Of a stretch of DNA of 64,000 nucleotides, positions 39,746 to 64,000 are shown piece by piece. Every line of letters starts with the position of its first letter. The stretch's first letter is position 1. The notes below the pieces were generated by a model. It made no database searches and had not been told where the DNA came from. It saw only the letters and a list, made by a program, of their open reading frames with translations. Position numbers and translations under genes: made by a program. Origin of the DNA: an uncultured Bacteroides sp. (GTDB lineage: Bacteria > Bacteroidota > Bacteroidia > Bacteroidales > GCA-2748055); the NCBI GenBank assembly GCA_964458155.1, contig CAYWGP010000118.1, positions 9,810-73,809 on the forward strand. Direction: 5' to 3'.

Positions 39746-40327
39746 ATGTATGAATATATCGAGGGAGAATTTGTTGAGAAGAGTCCCGCTCATCTGATTG
39801 TTCAGGCAGGCCACCTGGCCTACTACATTCACATTTCAGTATTTACCTACAGCCAGATCAGCAATCTGCAAAAAGGAAAGATCTACCTCCACTTTGTTGT
39901 CAGGGAAGATGCGCAGATTTTCTATGGTTTCGGCAGCCGGGAGGAGCGGGAAATCTTCAGAATGCTTATATCGGTTTCAGGGGTGGGTTCCAATACAGCC
40001 CGCCTGATCCTTTCTTCCCTTTCTCCTGAAGAAATAAGCCATGCCATTCTGGCCGGGAATGTCTCTATTCTACAGGGAATAAAGGGAATCGGGGCAAAAT
40101 CTGCACAGCGAATCATAGTCGACCTGAAGGATAAGGTCGGGGGAGGTGCTGGAATTGATGAATTATTCTTTTCAAAAGACAATACAAGTCGCGAAGAAGC
40201 GTTATCTGCTTTAGTAGCACTGGGTTTTCCAAAGAAAACCGTAGATAAGATTCTGACACGTATTTTAGCAGAGCAGCCCGAACTTTCAGTTGAGGAGGTA
40301 GTGAAGGCTGCCTTGAAGTTTATGTAG
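39746..40327 (+). CDS. ruvA: Holliday junction branch migration protein RuvA
   Basis: 'MYEYIEGEF', HhH motifs 'LISVSGVGSNTARLIL' and 'LQGIKGIGAKSAQRII'. Confidence 0.9.
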   Translation: MYEYIEGEFVEKSPAHLIVQAGHLAYYIHISVFTYSQISNLQKGKIYLHFVVREDAQIFYGFGSREEREIFRMLISVSGVGSNTARLILSSLSPEEISHAILAGNVSILQGIKGIGAKSAQRIIVDLKDKVGGGAGIDELFFSKDNTSREEALSALVALGFPKKTVDKILTRILAEQPELSVEEVVKAALKFM

Positions 40328-46300: not shown

Positions 46301-47697
46301 GTACTGTGAGAATACTTATGAGTATCCGAACCCTGAACCTGACCTATTCCACCAGTGGAGGAACCCTTCAGCCAGGATATGTATACGGGGTGGATCGCTT
46401 TGGGTTTGGCACCCATACAGTCAATGGATACATGGAACCCGGTTGGGGATTTATCGCAGGGTGGCAGGACCAGGATTATGCGCTGAACTCTTTTAACAGG
46501 GGGGCGCTTAGCACTGACCAGGTTCTCAATGAGCCCTATGCCATGAACCATACCGAGCGCTTTACCGGAAGGATGAGTATCGAACCATTTAATGGCCTGA
46601 AGATCGACCTGACATCCAACCGCATGTACTCTTATAACTATTCGGAATACTACACGGCCAATGCAGACGGTACTCTTCCTCCCGATTCTGCAAGAGGAAA
46701 ATATAATACCGGAAACTTCAGCATGTCGGTGATCACCCTTAAAACTGCTTTTGAGAAGATTGATGACAACGTAGAGTCATCGGAGTCTTTCTACCTGCTC
46801 CAGAACGATTACAGGCAGACCATATCCCAGCGCCTGGGCCAGGAGTATACCGAAAATACCGGGGTGGTGCTGCCTCCCGATACTGCCAACGCCGGTTATG
46901 TAAGCGGATATGGACCCACTTCTCAGGAAGTCCTTATCCCGGCCTTCCTGGCTGCCTACGGAGGAGGTTCACCTGACGATGTATCCATGAATGTAATCAA
47001 AACCATCTGGCAGATGATGCCCAACTGGCAGGTAAGATTCGACGGATTGGGGAAGATTGAAGCTTTGCAGAGGTATGTCAATTCCATTGTTATGAACCAC
47101 TCCTACCGCTCAACTTATAGTGTGGGATCCTTTATCAACAACCCCTTTTACAGGGTTGACACCATCAGCGGGGTGCCCATAGCTTATGATCTGCAGGGGA
47201 ACTTCATGGTGGATCAGAATGTCAATATAGTCAGTGTCAATGAAAATTTCAGTCCCTTCCTGGGTCTTAATATGGATTGGAAGAACAGTCTGACCACCCG
47301 TATTGAATACAAACGGGCCAGAACAGTGGCCATGAATATGAACAACACACAGGTAAATGAGATTAACAGCGAAGAGTATATTATCGGGGCAGGTTACCGC
47401 TTCAATGAAGTTCCCCTGGTTATCAACCAGAGAAACCTGTCAAGTGACCTGAATATCAGGCTTGACCTTTCCATGCGGAACAACCGGACCGTGATCCGGA
47501 AACTTGAAGGTCTCTCGGGAAGTGAGATCACAGCCGGTCAGACCATTTTCTCTTTGAAGGCATCCGCTGATTACATGTTAAGTGATAAGTTCATCCTACG
47601 GCTCTTCTACGACCAGAGGCTCACAACACCTTATATATCAAATTCATATCCAAACGCAAACTACAATGTGGGCTTCAGCATGACTTTCACATTGTAA
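40327..47697 (+). CDS. sprA: cell-surface protein SprA (type IX secretion system translocon; Sov homologue)
   Basis: 2456 aa. Signal peptide 'FLLALAANAQ'. Giant beta-barrel-type composition ending in the aromatic-rich 'YNVGFSMTFTL'. Size and Bacteroidota context fit SprA. GTG start overlaps the ruvA stop by 1 nt. Confidence 0.85.
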   Translation: MNCRFKHIFLIVIGFLLALAANAQDSTLHYPFSDRGSYPFSSSGQSSPLYLNNPSNIHSNVVYDPLTQKYVFTETIGSWNYRYPTTMTMEEYGTFDMQQQVSDYWRMKASGSSLEQQLSFIPPIQVGGEAFDKVFGSNIISIVPTGSAELIFGFNLSKQDNPNISEQLRSVPSFTFDEKIIMNVAGTIGTKFAMDISYNTEATFDFENQTKLEYAGDEDEIIKKIEAGNVNFSLPGSLITGSQSLFGLKADLQFGKLTVSTVFSQQRGESSVINVEGGAQMNEYSVTVDNYDVNKHYFLSDYFRETYNQALSLLPVVNSDVAITRIEVWVTNKTTNFEESRNIVAVNDLAEPYPMFFDRDPTQTGNYPRNPLNDAYEELTTTYSAIRDIKNATTVLEGAGLVLGTDYEKLENARLLSAREYTFHEKLGYISLNTALNTDEILAVAYEYTYRGQTFRVGELSESSGISAPSTLIMKLIKPSNFTPRSYTWDLMMKNVYALGAYQVSQEEFTLDILYRDDKTGNAVNYLPGTSLDKTILIRLLNMDKLDSQLDPYPDGVFDYLENLTIYSSNGRVFFPLLEPFGADLTKILNDSLDADEAAAAIDKFVYQELYDSTKTKAQQIAEKNKFLIQGEYSSSSSSEIMLNAMNVPQGSVKVTAGGRELMEGTDYTVDYMLGRVTIINQGILESGTPIRISLENQSLFNFQTKTLIGTHLDYRISDKFNLGATVMHLTERPLTQKVNVGDEPISNTIWGLNGNYSTESQWITNLVDKLPFLETKAPSSFTVVGEFAQLVPGTSKAIGKEGNAYIDDFEGSETSMDLKQFSSWKLASTPRGFFPESDYNNNRAYGYNRALLSWYHIDPLFLNPDSRTPDYMKNDPDYMSSAYVYEVYEQDIFPFKENPNGIPTRISVLNLSYYPEERGPYNYDYQRIGLDGKLLEPQERWGGVMREIYSTDFEQANVEFIEFWMMDPFVEMPDHSGGELYFNLGNISEDVLKDSRKVFENGLPTSAEVEKVDTTVWGRIPLTQSLVQGFSAGDDTRKYQDIGLDGLSSMYSLDEESFFSQEPDDYLRQIDELYNAGLLSQEARDAIFDDPSSDDYMYYRSTFYDAAREDIIGRYKKYNNHEGNSPSDADNTESYPTSGTSLPDIEDINQDNTLSEGESYYSYRVDINKNDLEVGQNHIVDKVVDKVTYENGETADVTWFQFRIPIFDYDDIEGDISDFKTIRFMRMFMTGFEDTTFLRFARLDLIREEWRRYQFPLIQGGEDWTGVEPPLGALAISAVNIEENSGKEPVNYVLPPGFDRQIDPMQPQLRQLNEQSIVLRVDELADGDARAAYKNTQMDMRQYKKLRMEAHAEAITGEVLENDELVAFIRLGTDYKDNYYEYEVPLELTPPGRYDNDSDSDREIVWPSSNEFEVVLDDFKELKQARNSAMNDPESDVDISTVYSEIDDNGNRVSVTGNPNLSSVRTIMIGVRNPKAGNNPYGPDDALPKSGEIWLNELRLTDFNEHGGWAANGRATLKLADFGNVTFAGNTSQPGFGAIEQKIQERQLEQIIQYDISSNLQMGKFFKQESGVNIPVFVSYSKAIVNPEYNPLDPDVPLNEAIDEAETEAERDSIIRNSRDVVERKAFAVTNVRMNKAGNKKRFYSLSNWSTSFSMNEMNSRNPNLNYYNTSKVRGNLSYNFNTRPRNVQPFKTVKWMNSEWLRLIKDFNFNYTPSRVSFRTDMDRYYLEKEVRNVDNPSLYVQPTFKKDFYWNRFFDLKFDLTRNLRFDFSSTNNARIDEPEGRYKYDYQWDALRDTILNLGRSTSYFHQFNLSYTVPINKIPLLDWTSLNARYGGTYGWDVGPIIPDDPVYGPINLGNTIKNSNTIQLNGQLNLLNLYNKVPYLKDINAKYRNAQTRARESKSRIKTRVYDDDNIYLREGRARYVVHNLKTEDIVVEVFDENMQPVEVEMEIISNTRIRITSAKAIRNASVRVTGTIEKGESPLIFIAEGTVRILMSIRTLNLTYSTSGGTLQPGYVYGVDRFGFGTHTVNGYMEPGWGFIAGWQDQDYALNSFNRGALSTDQVLNEPYAMNHTERFTGRMSIEPFNGLKIDLTSNRMYSYNYSEYYTANADGTLPPDSARGKYNTGNFSMSVITLKTAFEKIDDNVESSESFYLLQNDYRQTISQRLGQEYTENTGVVLPPDTANAGYVSGYGPTSQEVLIPAFLAAYGGGSPDDVSMNVIKTIWQMMPNWQVRFDGLGKIEALQRYVNSIVMNHSYRSTYSVGSFINNPFYRVDTISGVPIAYDLQGNFMVDQNVNIVSVNENFSPFLGLNMDWKNSLTTRIEYKRARTVAMNMNNTQVNEINSEEYIIGAGYRFNEVPLVINQRNLSSDLNIRLDLSMRNNRTVIRKLEGLSGSEITAGQTIFSLKASADYMLSDKFILRLFYDQRLTTPYISNSYPNANYNVGFSMTFTL

Positions 47698-50121: not shown

Positions 50122-51558
50122 TTACATGGAGCGGTCAAGAAAATAGTTGTAGAGGATCCTGACACCGACACCACTGCCCCCTTTTCCCCTGTAATTGAAA
50201 AGGGTCTTATTGAAGGAGGGTCCTGCAATATCCAGGTGTATATATGGATAGTCGGTAAAGTGTTCAAGGAACTTTCCAGCCGTGATTGCACCCCCATACT
50301 TACCCCCAATGTTTTTCAGGTCTGCAATTTCTGACTTCAGTTGTTCCTTATATTCATCCCAGAATGGAAATTCGGCCACCTTCTCTGAAGTATATTCCCC
50401 ACTTGCCTTTAAATTATCCATGACCTCACGGCTGGCATTTCCCATACCCACCATACCATACTTATCAATGGCCATGTGAGCAGAACCGGTCAGGGTAGAA
50501 AGCTCAATAACCAGTTCAGGATCATATTGTTTCGCATAACTGAGGGCATCGGCCAGGATCATGCGGCCTTCGGCATCGGTGTTCAGCACCTCAACCGTAG
50601 TGCCATCATACATGGTGATTACATCTCCAGGGACATAGGCATTACCATCCGGCCTGTTATCTGTTGCGGGAACAAGTCCGACCACCCAAAGTGGGAGTCG
50701 GTTATTTGCAAGGGCATAAAATGCACCCGCCACTGCTGCTGCTCCACCCATATCACATTTCATATAATCCATGGAGTCGTGTGTTGGTTTCAGGCTCAGT
50801 CCCCCGGTGTCGTAAACGACTCCTTTCCCCACCAGCACAATGGGGCGGTCATTCACGGCCTTGTCCGGTTTCCAGGTGAGGATGGAGAAGGTGGGGGGAT
50901 CTATGCTTCCCTTATTTACAGCAAGCAATCCACCCATTTTCAGAGATTCGATCTTCCTTTTATTAAACACCTCCACGGAAAATCCCGATGCTGAACCCAT
51001 AAGCTCAATTTCTGCTGCCAGCTGTCCGGCAGTCAGGAAAGAAAGCGGCTCATTCACCAGATCGCGGGTAAGGTAAACAGCCCGAACCAGATTCTCCAGT
51101 TTCTCCACATGATCTTCAGTGAGCCCTTCATCATGTAGGAGCAATTCAGTCAGGGAGTATGCCCTGACACTATCTTTTGAAAGGTATTTCAGGAATTGGT
51201 AATTGGTCAGGGCAAGGCCTTCAGCAAAGGCTATGCATTCTTCCTGGTCTACTCCTCCATTGATCACGGTGAGCGAACTTACATCATGGTCAACAAGTAA
51301 GCTGTGCAAATCAAAACCCGCTTTTCTGGCTATTTCCAGGCGATTTCCAGGGGATACATCCTCTTTGTCAAGGCTACAGAATATCAGCAGGTGGTCCAGG
51401 CGGTTCAACAGGGCCATATTTTTCTTCCCGGCAAGCCGTTTTCCTATATATTCCTGTTCCTGAGGATCCTGTATATATGCATTCAGTGCCTGACCTTTCC
51501 TGAGCAGCAGAATCCTGCTTCCCTGAATATATTTATCCTTGGATTTCTTAATCTTCAT
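50122..51558 (-). CDS. pepA: leucyl aminopeptidase (M17)
   Basis: 'VGKGVVYDTGGLSLKP', 'MKCDMGGAAAV', 'NTDAEGRMILADAL'. Start chosen at 'MKIKKSK' (51558), overlapping the upstream kinase gene by 11 nt. Confidence 0.9.
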   Translation of the reverse strand: MKIKKSKDKYIQGSRILLLRKGQALNAYIQDPQEQEYIGKRLAGKKNMALLNRLDHLLIFCSLDKEDVSPGNRLEIARKAGFDLHSLLVDHDVSSLTVINGGVDQEECIAFAEGLALTNYQFLKYLSKDSVRAYSLTELLLHDEGLTEDHVEKLENLVRAVYLTRDLVNEPLSFLTAGQLAAEIELMGSASGFSVEVFNKRKIESLKMGGLLAVNKGSIDPPTFSILTWKPDKAVNDRPIVLVGKGVVYDTGGLSLKPTHDSMDYMKCDMGGAAAVAGAFYALANNRLPLWVVGLVPATDNRPDGNAYVPGDVITMYDGTTVEVLNTDAEGRMILADALSYAKQYDPELVIELSTLTGSAHMAIDKYGMVGMGNASREVMDNLKASGEYTSEKVAEFPFWDEYKEQLKSEIADLKNIGGKYGGAITAGKFLEHFTDYPYIHLDIAGPSFNKTLFNYRGKGGSGVGVRILYNYFLDRSM

Positions 51559-53488
51559 CTCTTGCTTGTTTAGCCAATGGCAGAGTAAATGTAAAATTGG
51601 AACCCACATCTATCTCACTCTCAATTTCCAGTGTTCCATTGTTTTTGTCCAGCAGGTCCAGGACCAGCTGCAATCCGAGCCCGGTTCCAATTTCCTGATC
51701 GGTTCCGGCTGAGCTGCTCAGGTAACCATCTCTTCGGAACTGCTCCAGGTATTCAGGCTTCATACCCACGCCTGTATCCTTAACCGAGCAGTAAACTTTA
51801 TCCTTCTCCTTCCAGGCTCTTACATGAACCGATCCGTCTTTACGTGTGAATTTTATGGCATTGGCCACCATGTTTCTCAATACGATATTCACCAGAACAG
51901 GATCGGCATAGGCAGAGATTCCGGGTTCTACTTCGCTGGTAAATGAAAGTTCTTTTTGAGTGGCCATATGTTGAAAAAGGGAGTATACCTCTTTTACCAT
52001 CTCCTCTATCTTTATTGATACGGGAGTGAAGCTCAGGCGTTCTGATTCACTTTTTCCCCAGTAGAGCAGGTTGTCAAGGAGAGTAACAGCCGCCTGGGAA
52101 GATTCGCGAAGGGACTGGGTAACATGCTTCTTGGAAGCAAGTTGTGGTTTGTCAACCAGCAGATCGGAAAACTGAGCCACACTGGAAATAGGATTTTTCA
52201 AATCGTGAGCAATCACTGACAACACCCTGTTTTTAAACCTCAGGGAACTCTCCAGCATAAGCCTTTCTTTATCTTTCTGGACCCATTGCATGATAATCAT
52301 CACGGCCATGGCAAAAATAAAGAGCTGGAAGGAGAGTTGTGTCAGGTAGTTATCTGCAGGTGAGCTGGCAGAATTTGCCAGCATTATGTCATTAATAAGC
52401 GTAAAAATAAAAAACGAAAGCGACGCAAAAAAGATTGCATCAATAAGCCTTCTTTTCAGAGTTCCGAAAAAGCTGATAAGCAGATAGTGGGTCAGGAAGA
52501 GCACCAGGAGCGGTTGAAAAACAAGCATTTCATAGGTAAACAGGTGCACCGGCAGGATAAACAGGGAGACACTGGCCAGTGAAATTAAAATGGTATTTGC
52601 CTGAATGACCGGCTTCATATACTTACGGGGAAAAAGCTTATGGAGAAAGATCATCCCGAACAATTGTGCCAGGAAGGTACCCAGGTATTCCATCCTGATC
52701 TGCCAGGACCAGGGAGCAGCGACAAAAGCATTGGAGAAGTAAAGGCCCGTATTGACCGATCGCATGAGGATGCCCATGGTGGTCAGTGCAAACAACAACA
52801 TCAATATATCCTTCCTGGTAAAGGACCAGAAAATCAGGTAGAAAATCATGAAAAAGAAGAGAACCCCTATGGTGGAGTAATCATACATACGCCTCTGTTC
52901 TTTTCTGCCAAGTACCTTGCTGCTGCCTCCCATAATGAGCGATTGCCAGAATCCACCCCTGCGGTGATGAAAGTTTGAAACCTGGATAAGGATTTGCAGG
53001 GTATCGGTGTCCGGAATATAACAGAAACTGCTTGGCTCATACCATGGCTTTTCTTCTTCAGCAGTGGTTCCCACCTCCCCGTTCTCAGCTACAAGGCGAT
53101 TGTTGAGGTAGAACTTAAAGGCTACATCGAAGACTGGGATATCAAAGCAGATTGCGGAGTTATAATCCTCAGGGATGATGATCTTAAGGCTGTAGGTGCC
53201 ATATCCCCATCCTGGGAGAGACTGGCCATCTATCTTGTAATTCTGCCAGTAAGAAGGCACCGTAACGGGAATCCCCTCTGACCCAAGTTGCTTATAATTC
53301 TCAGGGGTAAGCAGTGTCTCCCAGTGGAAGATCCATTCTCCATCCAGATCGAAGATACTCTGATCGTCCAGTTCACATTCCCCGAGATCAAGAATCCCTT
53401 TTTCCGGCACAGGAATTCCCTGGTGAGCGGAGAGTGTTGTAAATCCGAAAGTTAGAAGCAGAGTCAGTATGAAATGGGTTTTTTTCAT
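51548..53488 (-). CDS. 7TMR-DISM sensor histidine kinase (no receiver domain)
   Basis: Signal peptide, then 7TMR-DISMED2-like 'LDLDGEWIFHWETLLTPE', 7 TM helices, HisKA 'SVIAHDLKNPIS', and HATPase 'DTGVGM', 'GTGLGL'. Confidence 0.85.
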   Translation of the reverse strand: MKKTHFILTLLLTFGFTTLSAHQGIPVPEKGILDLGECELDDQSIFDLDGEWIFHWETLLTPENYKQLGSEGIPVTVPSYWQNYKIDGQSLPGWGYGTYSLKIIIPEDYNSAICFDIPVFDVAFKFYLNNRLVAENGEVGTTAEEEKPWYEPSSFCYIPDTDTLQILIQVSNFHHRRGGFWQSLIMGGSSKVLGRKEQRRMYDYSTIGVLFFFMIFYLIFWSFTRKDILMLLFALTTMGILMRSVNTGLYFSNAFVAAPWSWQIRMEYLGTFLAQLFGMIFLHKLFPRKYMKPVIQANTILISLASVSLFILPVHLFTYEMLVFQPLLVLFLTHYLLISFFGTLKRRLIDAIFFASLSFFIFTLINDIMLANSASSPADNYLTQLSFQLFIFAMAVMIIMQWVQKDKERLMLESSLRFKNRVLSVIAHDLKNPISSVAQFSDLLVDKPQLASKKHVTQSLRESSQAAVTLLDNLLYWGKSESERLSFTPVSIKIEEMVKEVYSLFQHMATQKELSFTSEVEPGISAYADPVLVNIVLRNMVANAIKFTRKDGSVHVRAWKEKDKVYCSVKDTGVGMKPEYLEQFRRDGYLSSSAGTDQEIGTGLGLQLVLDLLDKNNGTLEIESEIDVGSNFTFTLPLAKQARDED

Positions 53489-53553
53489 AGTAAGCAAATG
53501 TAATAATAAATTGACTTTCACAGTGCATTGTTGTATTTTGCATGATGGGGATG

Positions 53554-53576
53554 GCATTCTTAATAGCATTCTTAAT
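53554..53576 (+). repeat. 2 x direct repeat gcattcttaat with 12-nt periodicity, upstream of the 53600 gene
   Basis: gcattcttaat at 53554-53564 and 53566-53576, ending 24 nt before the ATG at 53600. Confidence 0.7.
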
Positions 53577-53599
53577 TCGTTAACCAAACTAATTAAACC

Positions 53600-54528: not shown

Positions 54529-54632
54529 GTAGTAATAGTTTTTTCTGTTTCTAAGTCAAAGATAACAAAGTATGTAATGATCGGAAGTTTAGATTGACCC
54601 GCAGTGAATATTTTGCGAACTTACCCGTGGAT

Positions 54633-55598
54633 ATGTCTATGGAAGCAAATACAGCGTATTTTGCACTGGAGGTGAAGGACCTGGTACGAAGATACGGGGA
54701 CCTCACTGCAGTGGACCGGCTCTCATTGCAGGTTAAACGGGGAGAGGTGTTTGGACTTCTGGGTCCCAACGGGGCAGGTAAAACCACCTCCATCAGGATG
54801 ATGTGTGGCTTGCTGAAACCTGATTCAGGGGAGGTGTTCATAAAGGGACAAAAGCTAAGTCCGGGCGGCAGTGCCAATGCCAGATCCAAGGTAGGCATCT
54901 GTCCCCAGGAAAATATACTCTGGAATAAGCTCAGCTGTTTTGAGCAGCTGGTGTTCAGTGCCAGGATGTATAATATTCCCCGCAGCATTGCATGCACTCG
55001 TGCCGGCGAACTGTTGGAGAAAATGGGACTGGGCTCAAAGCGGAACAAACTGGCCGGTACACTTTCCGGGGGAATGAAGCGTCGGATGAATGTGATTATG
55101 GCCATAATGCACGACCCCGAAATCATGGTTTTTGATGAGCCTGAAGCTGGACTGGATCCACAGAGCCGGGTACTGGTGAGGGATTTCATCAGGGAGACAG
55201 CCCTTGATAAAACGGTGATCGTGACCACACACAATATGGATGAAGCGGACAGGATTGCTCACCGCGTGGCCATAATTGATTCGGGCAGACTGCTTCAGCT
55301 GGATACTCCTGAAAACCTGAAGAGGTCCGTTGGTAAGGGAGATGTGATGGAGCTGAAACTCACAGGCAGTAATCCTGTCAGTCTGGGCAGGGCAGCACAA
55401 GAGCTGAAGGCATTGGGTTTTACCCTGAGCATGGAGAAAGAGGAACTTGATATCAGGGCCATGCACCTGGTATCGAGGATCCATGAGATATACCAGGTGC
55501 TGGAGAAGGAGAAGATCAGCATCCAGGAAATGAAAGTGCGCGAAAACACCCTGGAAGATGTATTTATACATCTTACCGGCAAAAGCCTGAGAGGATGA
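54633..55598 (+). CDS. ABC transporter ATP-binding protein (ABC-2 type exporter)
   Basis: Walker A 'GPNGAGKTT', signature 'LSGGMKRR', Walker B 'IMVFDEPEAGLD'. First ATG at 54633. Confidence 0.9.
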   Translation: MSMEANTAYFALEVKDLVRRYGDLTAVDRLSLQVKRGEVFGLLGPNGAGKTTSIRMMCGLLKPDSGEVFIKGQKLSPGGSANARSKVGICPQENILWNKLSCFEQLVFSARMYNIPRSIACTRAGELLEKMGLGSKRNKLAGTLSGGMKRRMNVIMAIMHDPEIMVFDEPEAGLDPQSRVLVRDFIRETALDKTVIVTTHNMDEADRIAHRVAIIDSGRLLQLDTPENLKRSVGKGDVMELKLTGSNPVSLGRAAQELKALGFTLSMEKEELDIRAMHLVSRIHEIYQVLEKEKISIQEMKVRENTLEDVFIHLTGKSLRG

Positions 55599-56761
55599 GG
55601 TGGTATGATGTTTTTATCAAGGGAATCAGGGAGCAGGTCCGGGATTACTGGATCCTGATACTGACACTTCTGATGGCTCCTCTGTTTATTGCCATCTACT
55701 TCCTGATGGCAGAAACGGAAGACCCGGTGTACGATGTAATCCTGGTAAACCGGGACAGGGTAAGTGAATACAGGGGAGAGGACTTTAAGCTGGGAGATTC
55801 CATAAGCAACTATGCCAGATTATTATCCCTTGCACCTGGAATGGAGATGTTAAAAATCAACAGTCTTGAAAGCAGGGAAGAAGCTGTTGCCATGTTGCGC
55901 AATAAGAAAGCCGATGTGGTTGTGGTCCTGCCGGATAATCTCTCGGCCTCGATAGCTGCTTATAAGGATTCTCTGGATCTGACTTCACACATCGAACTGA
56001 TTGGAGATATTACTCAGATAGAGTATATCGTTGGGGCTGTATGGGCAGAGGAGCTGATTAACCGTTATATACAAGATTTAGCTGAGATCCGGATGCCGGT
56101 AAGCTGGTACGAAACCACCCTTGGATTCTCCGGGAGGCGCAGTTTCTTTGAATTGTATGTGCCCGGACTGCTCATCCTGTCCATCATTATGATCATTTTC
56201 TCTGCATCGGCGGCCATTGTTCGTGAACCGGAATCACGCACGCTGGAACGACTCAGGGTATCCAGGCTAACGGCCCTGGAGTTTCTTTCAGGAATATCCC
56301 TGGTTCAGATAACTGTGGCAATCCTCTCCCTGCTACTGGCCCTGTTGACTGCCATGGCACTGGGTTACACCCTGATCCCGGGAACATTCTGGTTTCTCCT
56401 GCTGATCTCCGTGCTTACGGCTTTATCCATGATTAGTTTCAGTTTGCTCGTGGCTGCCATGTGCCGTTCTGTGAAAGAGGTGGCCATCATTGGAACCTTC
56501 CCGCTGTTCCTGCTGATGTTCTTTACCGGTGCAGCCTTTCCAGTCAGCGGTGGAAAACTCTTTTCCATTGGCGGATACCAGGTGATGCTGAATGATTTAC
56601 TTTCACCCAAATTTGCCATTGAAGCCCTGAATAAGGTACTTGTCAGGGGACTGGAAGTGAAGGATGCCATTCCCGAAATGATCGCACTGGTGGTACTTAC
56701 CCTGGTATATTTCCTGACGGGAACCTGGGCGTTTAAGCGAAGGCATATGCGGGCACGATGA
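55595..56761 (+). CDS. ABC-2 family transporter permease
   Basis: N-terminal TM, a large loop, and 5 C-terminal TM helices. 4-nt overlap with the ATPase gene. Confidence 0.8.
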   Translation: MRWYDVFIKGIREQVRDYWILILTLLMAPLFIAIYFLMAETEDPVYDVILVNRDRVSEYRGEDFKLGDSISNYARLLSLAPGMEMLKINSLESREEAVAMLRNKKADVVVVLPDNLSASIAAYKDSLDLTSHIELIGDITQIEYIVGAVWAEELINRYIQDLAEIRMPVSWYETTLGFSGRRSFFELYVPGLLILSIIMIIFSASAAIVREPESRTLERLRVSRLTALEFLSGISLVQITVAILSLLLALLTAMALGYTLIPGTFWFLLLISVLTALSMISFSLLVAAMCRSVKEVAIIGTFPLFLLMFFTGAAFPVSGGKLFSIGGYQVMLNDLLSPKFAIEALNKVLVRGLEVKDAIPEMIALVVLTLVYFLTGTWAFKRRHMRAR

Positions 56762-56792: not shown

Positions 56793-58787
56793 GTGACTCT
56801 TTTAAAGCCATTAGGATCTCACTGGACCTGTTACCTGCTTATTTTCCTTGCGGCCACTGCCGCAAGCAATTCCAAGGCACAGGAACTTGCTCTCTTTCCC
56901 TTTCAGGAAAGTGTGCTGGCCATGGATATGGCTATACATCCCGACATGGCCAAGTCATTAAATTCCAATCCTTTACTTGATGCTTACGATGTAAAGTATT
57001 ATGGGCTGGATGTGGAAGCGGACAATAGCTCCGACAGGATTCAGGGTAGTACCACAATTCTGGTGGAGGTGATTAGCCCTGCCTTTGATCAGCTGGTATT
57101 TGAGCTCTATCACAGTCTGGATGTTGACAGTGTTCTTGTGGATGGAGGAGAGGAGAGTTTCAGCCATGAGGGGGATGAGCTTTACATAGACCTGGAAACC
57201 CCAAGGGTTCCGGGCACACTGCTTACAGCGCAGATTTTCTATGGTGGGCAGACAGGTGAGGGGATGGTAAACGAACTGGATGAGGAATGGGGAATCCCTG
57301 TCACCTTTACCAGTTCGGAACCCTTTTACTCCAAGGACTGGTTCCCCTGTAAGGAGAATCTGACCGACAAGGCCGACTCGGTCCATGTGTTTATTACTAC
57401 TGACTATGGGCTGACAGGAGTCTCCAACGGATTGCATTCCGGAACCACCTATTTTCTCGATGGGAAGGTCCGTTATGAATGGAAGTCCAACTATCCCATT
57501 GATTTTTACCTGATCTCCATTGCGGTGGCCGACTATATTGAATACAATATCGAGGCCCAGGTGGATGGGTATAACCAGCCTGTTTTCATTCAGAATTTTA
57601 TTTACGATGTTCCGGGTTGCCTGGATACCTACAGGGATCAGATCAATGTGACCATCCCAATCATGCAGGTCTTCAGTGAGTTCTTTGACCCCTACCCTTT
57701 CAGGGAGGAGAAGTACGGACACTACCTCTGGCCCAGGGGAGGAGGAATGGAGCATCAAACCATGACAGGCATGGGTAATTTCGAGTTCTACCTGGTGGCC
57801 CATGAGCTGGGGCATTCCTGGTTTGGAAACTATGTTACCTGTGCAAGCTGGCAGGACATCTGGATCAATGAAGGGTTTGCAACCTATGCAGGCTACCTGG
57901 CTACAGAGGTCCTGGCGCCGGAGTATGCCGGTGGTGAGCGGGAATATCGGTTCAACAGAGCCCTGCTGGAACCCGATGGCAGTGTTTATGTTCCTGAAGA
58001 AGATGTGGATGATGCCTCCCGTATTTTCAGTGGCAATCTCTCTTATAACAAGGGAATGGCGCTGCTCTATATGCTCCGTTTTGAACTGCAGGATGATGAT
58101 CTGTTCTATCTTACTCTGAGAAATTTCATTGATCGATATGCCAATGGTGTGGCCACGGGGCTGGACTTTAAAGAGGTGCTGGAAGAGACTTCTGTAAGGG
58201 ATTTTACGGATTTCTTCGACCAGTGGTATTTTGGGGCTGGCTATCCCATCTATAATATCGACTGGGAGCAGAATGGTGCTATTCTTACCCTTAGCACCAG
58301 CCAGTCCACTTCTTCAACCCGGACCCCCCTGTTTAAAATGTCCATGGAGTATAAAATTATTCATGCAGGGGGGGATACTACCGTGAGGGTATTTCAGGGA
58401 GCCAATGAAGAGAGCTATGATTTCCAGATCCCCTATACGGTTAATGAAATCATTATTGACCCCAATAATCATGTCCTGGATGGAGTGATGCAGGAAATAA
58501 AGGCTGTGGATGCCGGGATGGATTCACCCCTGTTTTCCCTGGCTCCCAATCCCTCTCAGGGCTCTTTTCATTTTAGCCTGAATGAGCAGGACGGTAATGA
58601 ATCAGCTGAGCAGGTGATGTTGCAGGTAATGGACCTTAGCGGGAGAATTGTTGTCAGTCGTCACTACGAGCCAGGTCTTCCGTTTATGGAGAATAGCGTA
58701 GAACTGGAGAAGCCGGTCCGGGGCATGTATCTTGTCCGGTTTTCCTACAGGGACAGGTTTGAGGTACATAAATTACTGGTGGAATGA
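56793..58787 (+). CDS. M1 family aminopeptidase with T9SS C-terminal sorting domain
   Basis: 'GGMEHQTM' (GxMEN-like), 'HELGHSWFGN' plus 'WINEGFATY' zinc motif. C-terminal ~80 aa, 'LAPNPSQGSF...GMYLVRFSY...HKLLVE', looks like a type A T9SS CTD. Confidence 0.85.
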   Translation: MTLLKPLGSHWTCYLLIFLAATAASNSKAQELALFPFQESVLAMDMAIHPDMAKSLNSNPLLDAYDVKYYGLDVEADNSSDRIQGSTTILVEVISPAFDQLVFELYHSLDVDSVLVDGGEESFSHEGDELYIDLETPRVPGTLLTAQIFYGGQTGEGMVNELDEEWGIPVTFTSSEPFYSKDWFPCKENLTDKADSVHVFITTDYGLTGVSNGLHSGTTYFLDGKVRYEWKSNYPIDFYLISIAVADYIEYNIEAQVDGYNQPVFIQNFIYDVPGCLDTYRDQINVTIPIMQVFSEFFDPYPFREEKYGHYLWPRGGGMEHQTMTGMGNFEFYLVAHELGHSWFGNYVTCASWQDIWINEGFATYAGYLATEVLAPEYAGGEREYRFNRALLEPDGSVYVPEEDVDDASRIFSGNLSYNKGMALLYMLRFELQDDDLFYLTLRNFIDRYANGVATGLDFKEVLEETSVRDFTDFFDQWYFGAGYPIYNIDWEQNGAILTLSTSQSTSSTRTPLFKMSMEYKIIHAGGDTTVRVFQGANEESYDFQIPYTVNEIIIDPNNHVLDGVMQEIKAVDAGMDSPLFSLAPNPSQGSFHFSLNEQDGNESAEQVMLQVMDLSGRIVVSRHYEPGLPFMENSVELEKPVRGMYLVRFSYRDRFEVHKLLVE

Positions 58788-59440
58788 GAAGGATACTGCC
58801 CTGCATAGCAATTATTATGATGGCAGGCTCTGCAGCCCTGTCCGGCCAGTTTCCGGCCAGTTTCGGGCTAAAGGCAGGTATCTCGGTGGCCAACCAGACC
58901 TACAAGATCACGCCCCTCGATTATACCATTGATACAGAACCGGTATTCGGGCCGGCTTTCTCACTGTTTGCAGAGGCTTTTAAGGCAAATCATTTCTCTT
59001 TCCAGCTGGATCTGAGCTATGCCCTCAAGGGGAGCAGTACAAGCACGGAATCGCTTACTGTCAATCACCTGGATAACGACATGATAGTTGTGACAGAAGG
59101 GGAGACTGCAACATCGACCTTTAACTATCTCTCCCTTACGCCCATGGCCAGGTACAGGCTTGGAAAGTCTTCACTGATTCCCTATTTTTTGCTGGGGCCA
59201 AGAATGGATATCCTTCTGAAATACAATTCTGATTCCGAGTATCCACTGGACAATCAGAACAACATAATCCTGGGGCTGACATTCGGAGCGGGACTGGAGT
59301 ACAGGCTGAATGCATTGGGATTGTTTGCCGAACTCCAGTATCAGGGCGATTTTTTCCCGGTGACCGGACAGGATCCCCTGCTGGTTAATAACCACATGAT
59401 ATCACTTACTCTGGGAATCAGGTGGCTTGCTTCCGACTGA
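58784..59440 (+). CDS. outer-membrane beta-barrel (porin-family, OMP_b-brl_2-like) protein
   Basis: Signal peptide and alternating beta-strand pattern, 'GLKAGISVANQ', 'FGAGLEY'. 4-nt overlap with the M1 peptidase gene. Confidence 0.65.
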   Translation: MRRILPCIAIIMMAGSAALSGQFPASFGLKAGISVANQTYKITPLDYTIDTEPVFGPAFSLFAEAFKANHFSFQLDLSYALKGSSTSTESLTVNHLDNDMIVVTEGETATSTFNYLSLTPMARYRLGKSSLIPYFLLGPRMDILLKYNSDSEYPLDNQNNIILGLTFGAGLEYRLNALGLFAELQYQGDFFPVTGQDPLLVNNHMISLTLGIRWLASD

Positions 59441-62400
59441 GCTTTCTCAGCCTCCTTGTCTCAGAGATATTAATCACTTTTCGCAGCAGATCCAAACGAA
59501 GGGTAATGTAGAGAAGAAAGGTTAAGATCCATACCACGGCCATATTGTACAACAGGGTGCCAATTTTAATATTAGCAATTTGCTTATTGGGTGCATAGAG
59601 GTGAGCCCGGCCAAACCTGGAAGTGGGTTTCATTAAGCCAGGATAATACTTTCTTATCAAACGGCCATTCTTTTCAACCACTTGTTGGCCCACATTCTGT
59701 TTCAGAACCAGATCTTCGAGACTCTCATTGTGATACTTGTTTCTGAAGGCAGTGTAAGCCTGCACTCCAAGCTCATCGAGTAAAGCTTTGTTAATGTCTT
59801 CTTTTACTTCCTGGGATCTTCCCACTATTCTACTGTAATACTTCTTTACACCCTTCAGGTAGTCTTTAATGGCGATGGAAGCTGAATCAATATTGGATAC
59901 CGCATTTCCCTGGCCAGGTTCATAGGGCGCCAGCTCGGGGGCCAGTTTTCCCATAGCTGCCAGCTGTTCATTTAAATTTTGCAGATCTGACTGAAGGGTT
60001 TCAGCATCAGCACCATCTTTGTATTTAAGTTCCAGTTCATCCAGATTGGTCAGAAGCTCCGTAACAAGAAAGCTGCTCAGGTAATTAGCCTCGCTGATCT
60101 TTTGCTCGATATCAAAAAATACTTTCTCGAACTTGTTATTCTTATACTGAACCACAGCCAGTGCTTCGTAGGACCACATGGAAGTCATCAGGTTGCCAAG
60201 CAGCGGAACATACTCCTCATGGGTAATTCTGTGGTGCAATTTATCATACTTCACCAGTACCCCGCAGAAGAGGATCTGGGGGATCAGGAGGAAGGGGACC
60301 AGAATATAGATGGTAATCACCGAGTTTAGTCCGGCCGATATATTCAAACCCAGGAGGTTTGCAAAACAGGAGGTGGTAAAAAGTACCAGCCAGTAAGGGA
60401 GCAGCATCCCTTTGATCTCAAAGATCAGATTCCCTATCAGCACGTAGGAGAGCGACTGGAAGGCCGAGATGGCGAACATGATCAGGATCTTGGAATGGAG
60501 ATAGCTCCCCCTGCTCAAATTCAGGAAAGATTCCCGTTGAATAATCTTCCGGTCCTTTATAATCTCCTCCGAACTGATGGTAAGACCAAGGAAGAGGAAA
60601 ACTATCACGCTCATCAGCAGATAGGCTGGCAGGTTCTCATTGTACCGGAATACATAGGCAACCGGATTTTCCTTGGTGCCGCTGAAATACTTGGTAAATA
60701 ACCCCATAATTACCGCCAGGATGGGAGCCTCCAGCAGGGTGATCAGGATATATTGTTTATTTGTAAGCTTGGTAAGCAGATCCCTGGTAAAAAAGATCCT
60801 GGTCTGTTTAAGGAGACCGGGAATGCTGTACTGGTTTTCGGGAAGTTTCTCTTTCACGGGAGGAGGTGGACTTGTAACCTTCCTGGTGCTCTCATAAAGA
60901 GTGGCCCACTCCTTGGCGCTCACTTTCCTGGTCTGGGAGAGTTTCCCGTGCTCATTCACAATCTTTGCTTCGATAATCTGCAGCACCTGGTCAGGATCCA
61001 CATTACCGCAACGGCTGCACTGATCTTCGTTGGCATTGGCGTGGTTGCTCTTTGTTTTAAAATAGACCACAGCCTCGGCAGGGTTGCCGCAGTAAATCTG
61101 GTATCCCCCCTTATCCAAAAAGATAATCCGGTCGAACATTTTGTAAAGGGTGGACGATGGCTGGTGGATGTTCACAATCACCAGCTTCCCTTTAAAAACC
61201 TGCTCCCTCAGGAGGTTCATAACCATTTCGGAGTCAACCGATGAGAGTCCCGAAGTGGGCTCATCCACAAACAGAACGGAGGGTTCCCTGATCAGTTCCA
61301 GCCCGATATTAACCCTTTTACGCTGACCTCCGCTGATCACCTTGTTAAGGGGTTTTCCTACCTTGAAATTTCTTATTTCAAAAAGATCCAGATCGTTCAG
61401 TACCTGGTCGACTACCTCATCGAGCTGCTCTTCTTCAAGGTTATCCAGGCAAAGCTTTGCGTTGTAATACAAATTTTCCCTGACAGTCAGGTCCTCCAGC
61501 AAAAGATCGTCCTGGGGAATAAAACCAATGACACCTTTTAATTCCATTCTCTCCTTCTCATCATAGAGATTGTAACCGTTGATCAGGATCTCCCCCCCCT
61601 TGGGCTTCAGGTTTCCGTTTAAGACATTCAGCAGGGTTGATTTGCCCACACCACTTCCTCCCATGATGCCAATGAGTCGCCCCGATTCTTCATGGAGGTT
61701 GAAGTTATGCAATCCATTGGTGCTGTTCTTGAAACGAAACTCCACATCTCTGGCTACAAAAGAGATTCGTGAACTGAAAGAGGCAACAGAGAAAACTCCT
61801 GCCACGTCAGTATAGTATATTGTGTTGATCTTCTGTCCCCTGACGGCAGAACCATGATCAAAGGTATAGGTGATCCCTGCAAGTATCAGTTGCCCGTTCA
61901 GGAACAGATCTTCTTTTCCCTGGTAACGAAGCACATAGGTATTAACGCTGCTAATATTCAGAAAGAAGATATTGCCCTCAAGGTGATGATTATGGATGTG
62001 ATGTACGCCTTCCACACCTGCTTCATGACCACTGTTGATAAGCAGGACAGATTCCTTTACAGGGATTTCTTTCAGAGGGTAGATCACAAAGCTCAGAATT
62101 TCCAGGTACTCCTCTTCGTCGATATTAAATGCCGTGGCCACCGTCTGAAGGAATTCCAGTTCTGTCTCCCGGATTTCGATCCCGTAAGCGATATATTCCA
62201 CCAGCTGTATGATCACATAGATCTTTTGCCGCTGCTCCAGTTCTTCATTGATCTGTTCGCAAATGGAAAGGATTCGTACAGCAGTCAGCGAGGTGCGCTT
62301 TCTGCGCTTTACGCTCTGCTTATCAATGGCGTCATGGTGATAATGTTGGAGATAGTTCTCGAAGATCGACATATACTTCTCTGTCAGCTCAATGTTCAAC

Positions 62401-62519
62401 TGCCTCGAAAGAAAGGCACGGATAATATCCCTTTCCTTCTCCGAAATCTCCTGAATCTCATCAATATCCACAATTAATGCAAAAAGCTGCATCATTGCTT
62501 TTAAAATGGCCTCACTCAT
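59418..62519 (-). CDS. 1033-aa ABCG-like ATPase-permease fusion with a ~270-aa N-terminal regulatory extension and a C-terminal coiled-coil insert
   Basis: Walker A 'GGSGVGKST', signature 'ISGGQRKRVNIG', Walker B 'LFVDEPTSGLS', 'NIHQPS' (ABCG-type H-loop region), and an ABC-2 membrane domain. The N-terminus has two helical TerB-like repeats plus a beta-rich segment. A ~230-aa coiled-coil region and a final TM helix follow. Confidence 0.8.
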   Translation of the reverse strand: MSEAILKAMMQLFALIVDIDEIQEISEKERDIIRAFLSRQLNIELTEKYMSIFENYLQHYHHDAIDKQSVKRRKRTSLTAVRILSICEQINEELEQRQKIYVIIQLVEYIAYGIEIRETELEFLQTVATAFNIDEEEYLEILSFVIYPLKEIPVKESVLLINSGHEAGVEGVHHIHNHHLEGNIFFLNISSVNTYVLRYQGKEDLFLNGQLILAGITYTFDHGSAVRGQKINTIYYTDVAGVFSVASFSSRISFVARDVEFRFKNSTNGLHNFNLHEESGRLIGIMGGSGVGKSTLLNVLNGNLKPKGGEILINGYNLYDEKERMELKGVIGFIPQDDLLLEDLTVRENLYYNAKLCLDNLEEEQLDEVVDQVLNDLDLFEIRNFKVGKPLNKVISGGQRKRVNIGLELIREPSVLFVDEPTSGLSSVDSEMVMNLLREQVFKGKLVIVNIHQPSSTLYKMFDRIIFLDKGGYQIYCGNPAEAVVYFKTKSNHANANEDQCSRCGNVDPDQVLQIIEAKIVNEHGKLSQTRKVSAKEWATLYESTRKVTSPPPPVKEKLPENQYSIPGLLKQTRIFFTRDLLTKLTNKQYILITLLEAPILAVIMGLFTKYFSGTKENPVAYVFRYNENLPAYLLMSVIVFLFLGLTISSEEIIKDRKIIQRESFLNLSRGSYLHSKILIMFAISAFQSLSYVLIGNLIFEIKGMLLPYWLVLFTTSCFANLLGLNISAGLNSVITIYILVPFLLIPQILFCGVLVKYDKLHHRITHEEYVPLLGNLMTSMWSYEALAVVQYKNNKFEKVFFDIEQKISEANYLSSFLVTELLTNLDELELKYKDGADAETLQSDLQNLNEQLAAMGKLAPELAPYEPGQGNAVSNIDSASIAIKDYLKGVKKYYSRIVGRSQEVKEDINKALLDELGVQAYTAFRNKYHNESLEDLVLKQNVGQQVVEKNGRLIRKYYPGLMKPTSRFGRAHLYAPNKQIANIKIGTLLYNMAVVWILTFLLYITLRLDLLRKVINISETRRLRKLSRKQAT

Positions 62520-62602
62520 ATGATGTTATGTCTATACGAATATATTCAATTTAAAGCGCTTACTCTCACATTGTGCTTTTTTTTTCTTATTTTGACTACC
62601 TG

Positions 62603-63115
62603 ATGGAGAATAAGAATGCCATTATCAACTTTGAGGGTTCCATCTCATTTGAGACCATGGAAAAGCTGCTGAACCAGTTAAAATCGGCCAGTCAGTTTAA
62701 TGCTCTCAGGAAAACTGTCAGAAAACGTGTTTATGGGACTGTTGTTGAGTCGATCGATAATATTTTTAAGTATGCCACTCCATTTCAAAACAAGGGCAAT
62801 CTGCAGAACAAGCCTCCGCAAATCATTGTTAAAGAGGTGAATGGGAGATTTGTTGTCAGCGCGGGAAATCTAATCCGGAGTGCTCAGGTAGAGGACCTGA
62901 AGTACAAGCTGGACATGATTAATATAATGGACGATGACGCATTGAAATCACTTTACGAGGAAGTTATCAATAAAGATGCAAAAGAGGAGGACCGGGGCGC
63001 GGGCCTTGGACTTATTACCATGGCCATGCGTACAGATGAAAATATACGTTATCAATTCGACCCAGCTGGTCCGGGGTACTCATATTTTACTATGCATATC
63101 ACTATAAAAGAATAA
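62603..63115 (+). CDS. SiaB-like protein kinase (GHKL/anti-sigma-kinase fold)
   Basis: 'IINFEGSISFETMEKLL' and the G-box-like 'DRGAGLGLITMA'. It lies immediately upstream of a DUF1987 gene, as in siaB-siaC. Confidence 0.6.
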   Translation: MENKNAIINFEGSISFETMEKLLNQLKSASQFNALRKTVRKRVYGTVVESIDNIFKYATPFQNKGNLQNKPPQIIVKEVNGRFVVSAGNLIRSAQVEDLKYKLDMINIMDDDALKSLYEEVINKDAKEEDRGAGLGLITMAMRTDENIRYQFDPAGPGYSYFTMHITIKE

Positions 63116-63118
63116 CCA

Positions 63119-63523
63119 ATGGAAAAGTTAATTATCGAAGCAACGGCAAACTCACCACGAATCGTTCTCGATCCGGAATCCAGAAATTTTGAATTCTCAG
63201 GTGAATCACGTCCGGAAAATGTTCGTAAGTTTTATCTGCCAGTACTGGAATGGCTGGAAGCTTATACAGATGAACAGGGAAAACTTCAGGATGATGAAAG
63301 GACCTTCGGTGTAATTTGTCAGTTTAATTTTGAGTACTTTAACTCAACCTCGGCCAAGTATATTCTGGATATTTTCAAATCACTGAATGCTATCAATGCT
63401 ATGGGTATAGGCCTTGAAATCAAGTGGCTCTATGAAGAAGATGATGAAGATATGCTTGAAGTAGGCCAGGAGATGTCGAGAATGTCAAAACTCTCGTTTG
63501 AATATATAAAAAGCGATGGCTGA
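63119..63523 (+). CDS. DUF1987 (SiaC-like) regulatory phosphoprotein
   Basis: 'TANSPRIVLDPESRNFEFSGESRPENVRKFYLPVLEWL' and 'FEYFNSTSAKYI' match the DUF1987 pattern, including the Ser/Thr cluster. Confidence 0.7.
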   Translation: MEKLIIEATANSPRIVLDPESRNFEFSGESRPENVRKFYLPVLEWLEAYTDEQGKLQDDERTFGVICQFNFEYFNSTSAKYILDIFKSLNAINAMGIGLEIKWLYEEDDEDMLEVGQEMSRMSKLSFEYIKSDG

Positions 63524-63534
63524 GCAAGGCATTG

Positions 63535-64000
63535 TTAAATTTTAATACCCATAACCAGGACATCATCAATCTGTTCAGCCTTCCCCTGCCAAAGGGATAA
63601 TTTCTCCATCAGGATAGCTTTCTGTTTCTCCATTGGTTGATCCTGAATCTCCAGTAACAGTTTCCTGAATTTTATGGCCCGGAAGGTTTTTCTTAGCGGA
63701 CCACCAAGTTGGTCCACGTATCCGTCTGAAAAGAGATAGATGCTATCACCCTTCTTCAGCTTGATGGTTTGCTTGTTAAATGGGACAGGGTCCTGTTCGT
63801 AGATGCCAATAGGCATTCTGTCGGGACGATAATGCTGAACTTCCCCATCCCTTACCAGGTACAGAGGACGGTTTGCACCGGCGTATTCCATGGAAAGCTT
63901 TTTCAGGTCGATGATACAGAGAGCAATCTCAATTCCATCCTGGGCCTCATCCCTGGATCCGGTCTGGTGCATGGAAGCAATTACCACTTCTCTCAATTGC
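63535..64000 (-). CDS. PP2C/SpoIIE-type serine/threonine phosphatase, C-terminal part (5' end outside window)
   Basis: 'QDGIEIALCIID', 'GANRPLYLVR', 'LFSDGYVDQLGG', 'DDVLVMGIKI'. The frame stays open to the window edge. Confidence 0.8.
   Translation of the reverse strand, partial: QLREVVIASMHQTGSRDEAQDGIEIALCIIDLKKLSMEYAGANRPLYLVRDGEVQHYRPDRMPIGIYEQDPVPFNKQTIKLKKGDSIYLFSDGYVDQLGGPLRKTFRAIKFRKLLLEIQDQPMEKQKAILMEKLSLWQGKAEQIDDVLVMGIKI

Follow-up and report, generated by a model that had tools for sequence, protein, structure and literature searches.

Sigma factors and, in Pseudomonas, a diguanylate cyclase are known targets of partner switches that consist of a PP2C phosphatase, a GHKL kinase, and a small STAS-like phosphoprotein. 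Here, we describe a locus in which the three signaling proteins of such a switch are encoded beside a large ABCG-like transporter. The locus closes a stretch of 64,000 nucleotides from an uncultured Bacteroides sp. (assembly GCA_964458155.1, contig CAYWGP010000118.1, positions 9,810 to 73,809 of the forward strand), which in its full length is called the window in the following. Judged by homology, by gene linkage, and by analogy to characterized systems, it is on balance probably a Sia-type partner switch with an ABC exporter as output, in place of the diguanylate cyclase.

The nearest template is SiaABCD of Pseudomonas aeruginosa. The genes siaA-siaB-siaC-siaD are co-transcribed, and unphosphorylated SiaC binds target helices in the GGDEF cyclase SiaD—a contact that is blocked by phosphorylation (PMC8457831). 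The SiaB–SiaC complex has been solved (6kko), and the authors of the SiaC–SiaD structure suggested, in general terms, that DUF1987 proteins act on proteins adjacent to them as modulators (PMC8457831). In HsbA–HsbD, BgrV–BgrR, SpoIIAA/AB, and RsbV/W, a PP2C phosphatase and a GHKL kinase likewise toggle a small target-binding phosphoprotein (PMC8457831); these STAS-type switches differ from the locus described here in their outputs, which are cyclases for the first two and sigma factors for the latter two. Two further systems concern ABC transporters themselves. In MlaFEDB, the small STAS-fold protein MlaB binds the ABC ATPase MlaF and regulates it post-translationally (PMC7367683). SiaC is structurally STAS-related as well (PMC8457831, PMC7647112), a likeness of fold, whereas MlaB is a constitutive subunit without a dedicated kinase/phosphatase pair and belongs to another transporter class. 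In Mycobacterium tuberculosis, Ser/Thr phosphorylation acts as a positive control on Rv1747, an ABC exporter that bears FHA domains (PMC3138270). With the precedents of MlaB–MlaF and Rv1747, a direct control of an exporter by SiaC becomes plausible.

The locus in the window shares with SiaABCD the three signaling parts, as recognized by curated models and by alignment to solved structures, the membrane/HAMP–PP2C architecture of the phosphatase, and the acceptor position in the N-terminal part of SiaC helix α2 (PMC8457831, PMC7647112). It differs in the fourth gene—there the GGDEF cyclase SiaD, here an ABCG-like exporter with no GGDEF nearby—in the serine acceptor found in the window's clade, and in a layout with a divergent ABC gene and a convergent phosphatase. 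With Rv1747/PknF, it has in common an exporter made of nucleotide-binding and transmembrane domains, with a cytoplasmic N-terminal FHA-type region and beside Ser/Thr phospho-signaling genes (PMC3138270); this likeness is one of architecture and gene context. However, the substrate of the Hanks-type kinase in the Rv1747 system is a linker within the transporter itself, with phosphothreonine being read by two canonical FHA domains, whereas in the window a GHKL-type SiaB would act on a separate STAS-like protein, and a single non-canonical FHA-like domain follows a TerB-like bundle. The features of the locus, in window coordinates, are:

59418-62519, minus strand: ABCG-like half-transporter of 1033 residues with regulatory N-terminus, nucleotide-binding domain, transmembrane domain, and C-terminal extension (ABC_tran, ABC2_membrane)
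62082-62519, minus strand: TerB-like helical bundle, ABC residues 1-146 (AlphaFold2, Foldseek, Pfam TerB)
61815-62078, minus strand: FHA-like β-sandwich, ABC residues 148-235 (AlphaFold2 model of the domain alone and matches to PDB structures)
61050-61751, minus strand: nucleotide-binding domain, ABC residues 257-490 (ABC_tran at 270-423, E=2.3e-30)
60234-60806, minus strand: ABC-2 type membrane domain, ABC residues 572-762 (ABC2_membrane, E=4.6e-19)
59418-60212, minus strand: C-terminal extension, ABC residues 770-1033, with one further transmembrane helix at 989-1012 (hydropathy)
62520-62602, no strand: ABC/SiaB intergenic region of 83 nt with a palindrome (read from the sequence)
62603-63115, plus strand: SiaB-family Ser/Thr protein kinase, 170 residues (NF038262, DUF6272, 6kko_A)
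63119-63523, plus strand: SiaC/DUF1987 STAS-like phosphoprotein, 134 residues (PF09345, 6kko_C)
63344-63346, plus strand: codon of Ser76, the predicted acceptor of SiaC (alignment to P. aeruginosa T68)
63535-64000, minus strand: PP2C/SpoIIE phosphatase in the SiaA role, C-terminal 154 residues, running off the window end (SpoIIE, E=1.6e-15)

A first-pass annotation of the same DNA had named the two genes at 62603-63523 SiaB and SiaC(DUF1987), and both products indeed exceed the cutoffs of the family models. SiaB scores 128.4 bits against the NCBIfam model SiaB_fam_kinase NF038262 (cutoff 85) and 107.9 bits against Pfam DUF6272 (cutoff 26.6); P. aeruginosa SiaB (6kko_A) matches it with E=1.8e-10, the N-box (DNIFKYA) and the G-box (GAGLGL) being aligned. 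SiaC reaches 109.2 bits against Pfam PF09345 (cutoff 24.5) and is matched by P. aeruginosa SiaC (6kko_C) with E=3.8e-7. The scores stay below the P. aeruginosa equivalog models, with 75.1 versus 225 bits for kinase_SiaB, 65.4 versus 150 bits for phos_prot_SiaC, and 78.9 versus 700 bits for prot_phos_SiaA, the last scored on the phosphatase as truncated by the window. Hence, the Sia proteins of the window are family homologues and not orthologues of SiaA, SiaB, and SiaC.

The Ser/Thr cluster ‘YFNSTSAKY’, which had been noted as sitting at the expected position, covers SiaC residues 73-81. In the alignment to 6kko_C, N75-S76-T77 pairs with N67-T68-S69 of P. aeruginosa, and the counterpart of T68 is therefore Ser76 and not a threonine: the place of the cluster was right, the phosphothreonine acceptor was not. 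Across 71 related SiaC sequences, Y-F-N-S-x-S-x-K including Ser76 is invariant and Thr77 is variable (T/S/G/A/L). A search for SiaC homologues returned only sequences that were at least 76% identical. In two sediment metatranscriptomes, fragments over SiaB and SiaC are only 85-95% identical and stem from related organisms. Many different sediment metatranscriptome contigs match only the short acidic motif WLYEEDDEDMLE at SiaC residues ~101-116 (63419-63465), and, therefore, numerous distinct DUF1987 homologues seem to be transcribed in those samples.

The phosphatase was likewise correctly recognized as a PP2C/SpoIIE protein converging on the pair at 63535, and its full length could be read from a near-identical 3.5-kb metagenome contig (L001, 809-3016). 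The complete protein has 735 residues: a sensor region, encoded beyond position 64000, with ~6 transmembrane segments and a weak HAMP domain (385-428), then a coiled coil and a SpoIIE domain (536-734, E=9.3e-25). All metal-binding motifs are present (SGDYY, DCTGHG, SDG, DDV), and the predicted layout of this window-type phosphatase is SiaA-like. Beyond it follow an aldo/keto reductase and, in relatives with long contigs, TPR proteins and glycosidases. The absence of a visible GGDEF gene, already remarked upon in the first-pass annotation, extends well past the window. A GG[DE]EF motif occurs in no frame of the 64 kb, a GGDEF consensus probe finds no match even at E≤1 in the window and 184 fetched loci (2.64 Mb), and PF00990 is missing from the annotated neighborhoods examined. 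With the same probe, 57 solved GGDEF proteins are recovered, among them SiaD (7e6g, E=3.4e-40) and degenerate members such as FimX. A GGDEF gene or another obvious effector past the window end can thus be rejected, as neither the genes that follow the phosphatase nor the probe show one. There is no diguanylate cyclase in the neighborhood, which here comprises the window and the fetched loci.

The case for the exporter as the output is carried by gene neighborhoods. Gene order that is kept in close relatives says little, since the rest of the region is kept too. Two non-overlapping censuses, both ABC-centered and based on alignments of the N-terminal region trimmed to exclude the ATPase domain, cover wider ground. 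The first comprises GTDB species-representative genomes, of which the best 80 of 556 confirmed stretches at 51-94% identity were taken; the second comprises 80 loci on metagenome contigs and was seeded with divergent members (a six-sequence alignment). In the first census, a locus was judged if its sequence extended at least 1.1 kb beyond the ABC start on the upstream side (70 loci); in the second, if it had enough upstream sequence (72 loci). SiaC adjoins ABC in 70/70 judged loci of the first census and SiaB in 59/70, and in the second both are found in 71 of the 72—pooled, SiaC adjoins ABC in 141 of 142 judged loci. The co-occurrence of ABC and Sia genes, which the first-pass annotation had set as a test of its reading, is hence near total. 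Together, the censuses represent 124 lineages at 90% identity (33 at 70%), and the ABC N-termini of the second census are only about 29% identical to that of the window. The carriers are abundant, mostly uncultured Bacteroidales of sediments and bioreactors; source names in the second census are Bacteroidales, Tenuifilaceae, and Salinivirgaceae.

When all neighboring open reading frames are clustered, the only families common across the clades of the first census are ABC (80/80 loci), SiaB/SiaC (75), and PP2C (64), with all remaining neighbors being clade-specific. These numbers bear on the possibility that the genes are neighbors through common descent within one order, with no functional tie at all. 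All taxonomically labeled loci are indeed Bacteroidales or Bacteroidota, and the span may be that of one order or phylum. However, flanking genes turn over completely between clades where ABC, SiaB/SiaC, and PP2C persist, the ABC N-terminal identity between linked clades goes down to about 28%, and orientation, order, fusion state, and phosphatase type were reshuffled at least five times with the SiaC–ABC adjacency unbroken. The clustering into lineages also argues against a linkage simulated by assembly duplicates of a few genomes. Such neutral synteny is hence highly improbable. The window also holds, at a distance of a few kb from the large ABC, a separate two-gene ABC-2 system (ATPase and permease, 54594-56761, plus strand); its conservation is confined to the clade of the window, and it therefore lies outside the module.

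The linked loci fall into five arrangements, the first four of which were counted where the sequence before the ABC start was at least 3.3 kb long:

Window type: SiaB-SiaC divergent from ABC, transmembrane/HAMP phosphatase convergent; 33 loci
RyR type: SiaB-SiaC-(RyR)PP2C co-directional, divergent from ABC; 16 loci
SiaB-less type: SiaC-(RyR)PP2C with no SiaB within 10 kb; 10 loci and L014
Operon type: PP2C(GAF and two PAS)-SiaB-SiaC-ABC on one strand; 58/59 loci of the second census
Downstream type: SiaB-SiaC 3' of ABC and convergent with it; 1 locus (L180)

In the operon type, the genes stand as in siaABCD, except that ABC takes the position of SiaD, and ~50-80 bp separate the end of SiaC from the ABC start; this branch of the ABC-linked loci hence shares with SiaABCD the gene order A-B-C-output. 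The acceptor position is a serine in the window, RyR, and SiaB-less types and a threonine in the operon and downstream types. In a further difference from SiaABCD, the ABC-linked family contains SiaB–SiaC fusions and variants without SiaB. In about a dozen species of the RyR type, the kinase and its own substrate form one protein of ~300 residues (L068, L069, L070, L072, L074, L075, L079, L080, L081, L089, L090, and L097, also L017 at 8911-9822), which is not a frameshift artefact of long reads since short-read assemblies show the fusion too. SiaC without SiaB within 10 kb is found at L014, L073, L077, L078, L083, L084, L086, L087, L091, L093, L095, and L096; all of these loci except L096 have an RyR-domain PP2C near ABC, and the acceptor serine is still conserved. 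A few other loci keep SiaB and SiaC with no phosphatase nearby. Either SiaB or PP2C can thus be missing, and SiaC is the sole partner that is never lost where the linkage exists. With the SiaC–ABC adjacency being near-obligate through rearrangements, sensor types, fusions, and flank turnover, direct control of the exporter by SiaC would be the best explanation.

The intergenic region in the window offers one element that might be read in another direction. Its length of 83 nt agrees with the first-pass annotation and presumes that SiaB starts with the ATG at 62603; an in-frame GTG is present at 62573 too. A perfect 10-bp palindrome, GAATATATTC, lies at 62538-62547 within TTGAATATATTCG, ~20 nt upstream of the ABC start codon. 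Of 13 aligned related species, reaching down to ~72% ABC N-terminal identity, 12 have GAATATATTC unchanged amid neighboring bases that vary, and the palindrome may thus serve as an operator or as part of a promoter. A T9 run and TTATTTTG directly precede the SiaB ATG.

ABC and SiaBC–PP2C (SiaBC standing for SiaB and SiaC) might thus be linked by co-expression only: both would be needed under the same conditions and share a promoter region or operon, with SiaC acting on an unlinked target such as a transcription factor, a different enzyme, or a distant cyclase. The conserved palindrome could then be an operator for a shared regulator. Linkage alone does not tell whether genes are co-regulated or their products interact physically, six divergent ABC relatives do without adjacent SiaBC, and the inspected span of at most 20 kb per genome leaves room for a distant SiaC target. 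On the other hand, the SiaC target in the one studied system is the product of the operon's fourth gene (PMC8457831), and this is the place taken by ABC in 58 of the 59 loci of one branch. The linkage is, moreover, kept in divergent, convergent, and co-directional layouts without one common promoter logic, no other gene family co-travels, and the ABC protein carries a dedicated cytoplasmic regulatory module. We thus regard co-expression without contact as unlikely.

The ABC protein itself is a half-transporter in which the nucleotide-binding domain precedes the transmembrane domain. The ATPase motifs are intact—Walker A at residue 287, Q-loop at 334, ISGGQ at 395, Walker B VLFVDE at 415 with the catalytic Glu, and H-loop at 451—and the hydrophobic segments of the transmembrane domain lie between residues 591 and 752. 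The closest solved sequences are those of the ABCG/PDR transporters CDR1, ABCG2, ABCG5/8, and ABCG1. The best NCBIfam match, TIGR00955, is reached with 246.5 bits and a cutoff of 736; by its sequence, the protein is hence ABCG-like and outside this curated subfamily. Residues 770-1033 hold the conserved extension of about 230 residues, which ends in the additional transmembrane helix and has no match in Pfam; ABCG-type half-transporters do not usually have such an extension. In an exhaustive profile search, the N-terminal region turns up in 1022 clusters at 50% identity. Full-length family members are consistently 990-1110 residues long, with the N-terminal region at residues 1-254 and a C-terminal extension conserved in length. 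A known anti-phage defense system was rejected as an identity for the locus, as PADLOC gave only generic ATPase-level matches to the ABC domain. At its 3' end, the ABC gene (minus strand) overlaps convergently by 23 nt (59418-59440) with the gene of an outer-membrane β-barrel protein (58784-59440, plus strand).

The regulatory N-terminus is modeled by AlphaFold2 (residues 1-255) with a pLDDT of 85.5 as helices at 3-146 followed by a β-domain at 158-228. The helical part, an additional N-terminal domain that the first-pass annotation did not include, weakly matches the structure 2h5n of PG1108 (Foldseek E=0.05, TMt 0.55). Pfam TerB (PF05099) is matched by 11/13 family members with a best E of 1.6e-5; the window protein itself scores 18.9 bits, under the cutoff of 24.4. 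The β-domain, modeled alone, reaches a pLDDT of 90.1, and the top-50 PDB matches of this isolated domain are all FHA domains (E 3e-3 to 7e-2, TM 0.45-0.52). Pfam FHA finds no match at E≤10 in the window protein or any of the 13 family members, and an FHA assignment at the level of sequence was, hence, rejected. Conserved in the family consensus of the domain are L-x-G, N193, Y-x-G, LNG, and GS-x-I-[RK]. The FHA-like N-terminal segment proposed in the first-pass annotation is thus consistent with the modeled fold, whereas neither a Pfam match nor recognizable phosphothreonine-binding motifs back it.

With these parts, the following mechanism can be proposed. The membrane PP2C phosphatase, as the input with clade-specific sensors, and the SiaB kinase would together determine whether SiaC is phosphorylated at Ser76. 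SiaC in one of its forms would bind the cytoplasmic N-terminal module of the exporter (TerB-like and FHA-like) or the adjacent ATPase domain, and this binding would switch ATP hydrolysis and transport on or off. The unphosphorylated form would most likely be the one that binds, by analogy with SiaC–SiaD, and the TerB-like helical bundle would be the more likely docking site: both are favored because the SiaC–SiaD contact uses target helices and is blocked by phosphorylation. We infer the SiaC–ABC binding, the form of SiaC that binds, and the sign of the regulation from this analogy.

Some observations weigh against such a mechanism or limit its reach. SiaB is absent beside SiaC in about eleven species. 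Of seven very divergent ABC family members that were inspected individually, six have the same N-terminal module and core without SiaB, SiaC, or PP2C in the sequence examined, an absence also checked with purpose-made hidden Markov models. They are P0188 (L015), P0321, P0314, P0311, P0285, and a relative close to P0259 (L098), and the loci without SiaBC are L015, L098, L178, L181, L182, and L183; the seventh member, P0333 (L180), has SiaB-SiaC. The TerB/FHA-like module is hence wider than the SiaC partnership, and SiaC is not an obligatory subunit of every ABC family member. No substitute regulators are recognizable upstream of ABC in these SiaBC-less relatives. At one of them (L178, 5453-5884), a 143-residue protein with a signal-peptide-like hydrophobic N-terminus and no family match is encoded directly upstream of ABC and co-directionally. 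A natural SiaC–ABC fusion, which could have served as a proof of contact, is not found among 215 family sequences. Within the FHA-like domain, the canonical phosphothreonine-binding motifs (GR, SxxH, NG) are not recognizable, and the family consensus shows neither GR nor SxxH as conserved.

The last point bears on a variant in which the exporter's FHA-like domain reads phosphorylated SiaC—phosphorylated at Ser76 here, at the threonine in the operon type—so that the phospho-form would be the active docking ligand, with a logic inverse to that of Pseudomonas. Classical FHA domains prefer phosphothreonine. Since the acceptor in the window's clade is a serine and the canonical FHA motifs are absent, a simple model of an FHA domain reading phospho-SiaC is doubtful, and we hold this variant to be rather unlikely. 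For the broader proposal of the first-pass annotation, that SiaC gates the exporter, the co-occurrence speaks in favor; corrections were needed as to which residue is the acceptor, what kind of domain the FHA-like one is, and how far the linkage extends, which is not universal, and the gating itself we still infer.

The direction of the signal might also be the reverse, with the activity or flux of the transporter being sensed via its N-terminal module and passed on to a Sia switch that acts elsewhere, much like pairs of a transporter and a kinase that sense flux. The phosphatases are informative in this respect. Their predicted sensors comprise RyR domains (L014, 7464-9320), transmembrane segments followed by a GAF and two PAS domains (L162, 6232-8853), and six transmembrane segments with HAMP (L001), a variety that neatly illustrates how input domains are swapped where the output stays constant. 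The usual input site of partner switches is thus already sensor-rich. In addition, the invariable neighbor of ABC is SiaC, which is output-proximal in P. aeruginosa (PMC8457831), and an ABC protein acting as the input would require an unseen downstream target. Nevertheless, the partner of the TerB-like/FHA-like module could be SiaB or the phosphatase rather than SiaC, lineages without an adjacent phosphatase or SiaB leave room for a regulatory role of ABC, and an output elsewhere in the genome is conceivable, even though ABC is the only output gene seen. Taken together, a role of the transporter as the input is quite unlikely, and the exporter as the output of the switch stays our preferred reading.

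Three further genes of the window lie apart from the module. A SprA-like protein of 2456 residues, a component of type IX secretion, is encoded at 40327-47697 on the plus strand (SprA_N, E=2.5e-202). An M1 peptidase at 56793-58787 has a weak Por_Secre_tail match under the Pfam cutoff and may be a cargo of the type IX secretion system. A 7TMR-DISM histidine kinase at 51548-53587 (minus strand) has no adjacent response regulator, and its position is conserved in the close relatives L008 and L011.

In a full-text literature search, no paper was found that contains both ‘DUF1987’ and ‘ABC transporter’, none that contains DUF6272 together with related terms, and none that describes a transporter as the output of a partner switch. 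The parts belong to known families; the proposed wiring—a Sia-type switch acting on an ABCG-like exporter with a TerB/FHA-like head—appears to be undescribed. The module is common, with 556 GTDB species-representative stretches and 1022 clusters at 50% identity for the family of the ABC N-terminal region, and with at least 124 lineages (at 90%) in its SiaC-linked part.

If the reading holds, a transporter as the direct output would be a new target class for partner switches, and it would give a concrete function to many of the DUF1987/DUF6272 pairs annotated in Bacteroidota. Beside Rv1747, it would be a second and mechanistically different example of Ser/Thr phospho-control of an ABC exporter. 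Should phospho-SiaC be read by the FHA-like domain after all, this would be the first case of a partner switch acting through phospho-dependent recruitment to a transporter in the membrane, with a non-canonical FHA domain that accepts phosphoserine. For these mostly uncultured Bacteroidales, the variety of phosphatase sensors on a constant output would make the module a clean system for studying input swapping in signaling cassettes.

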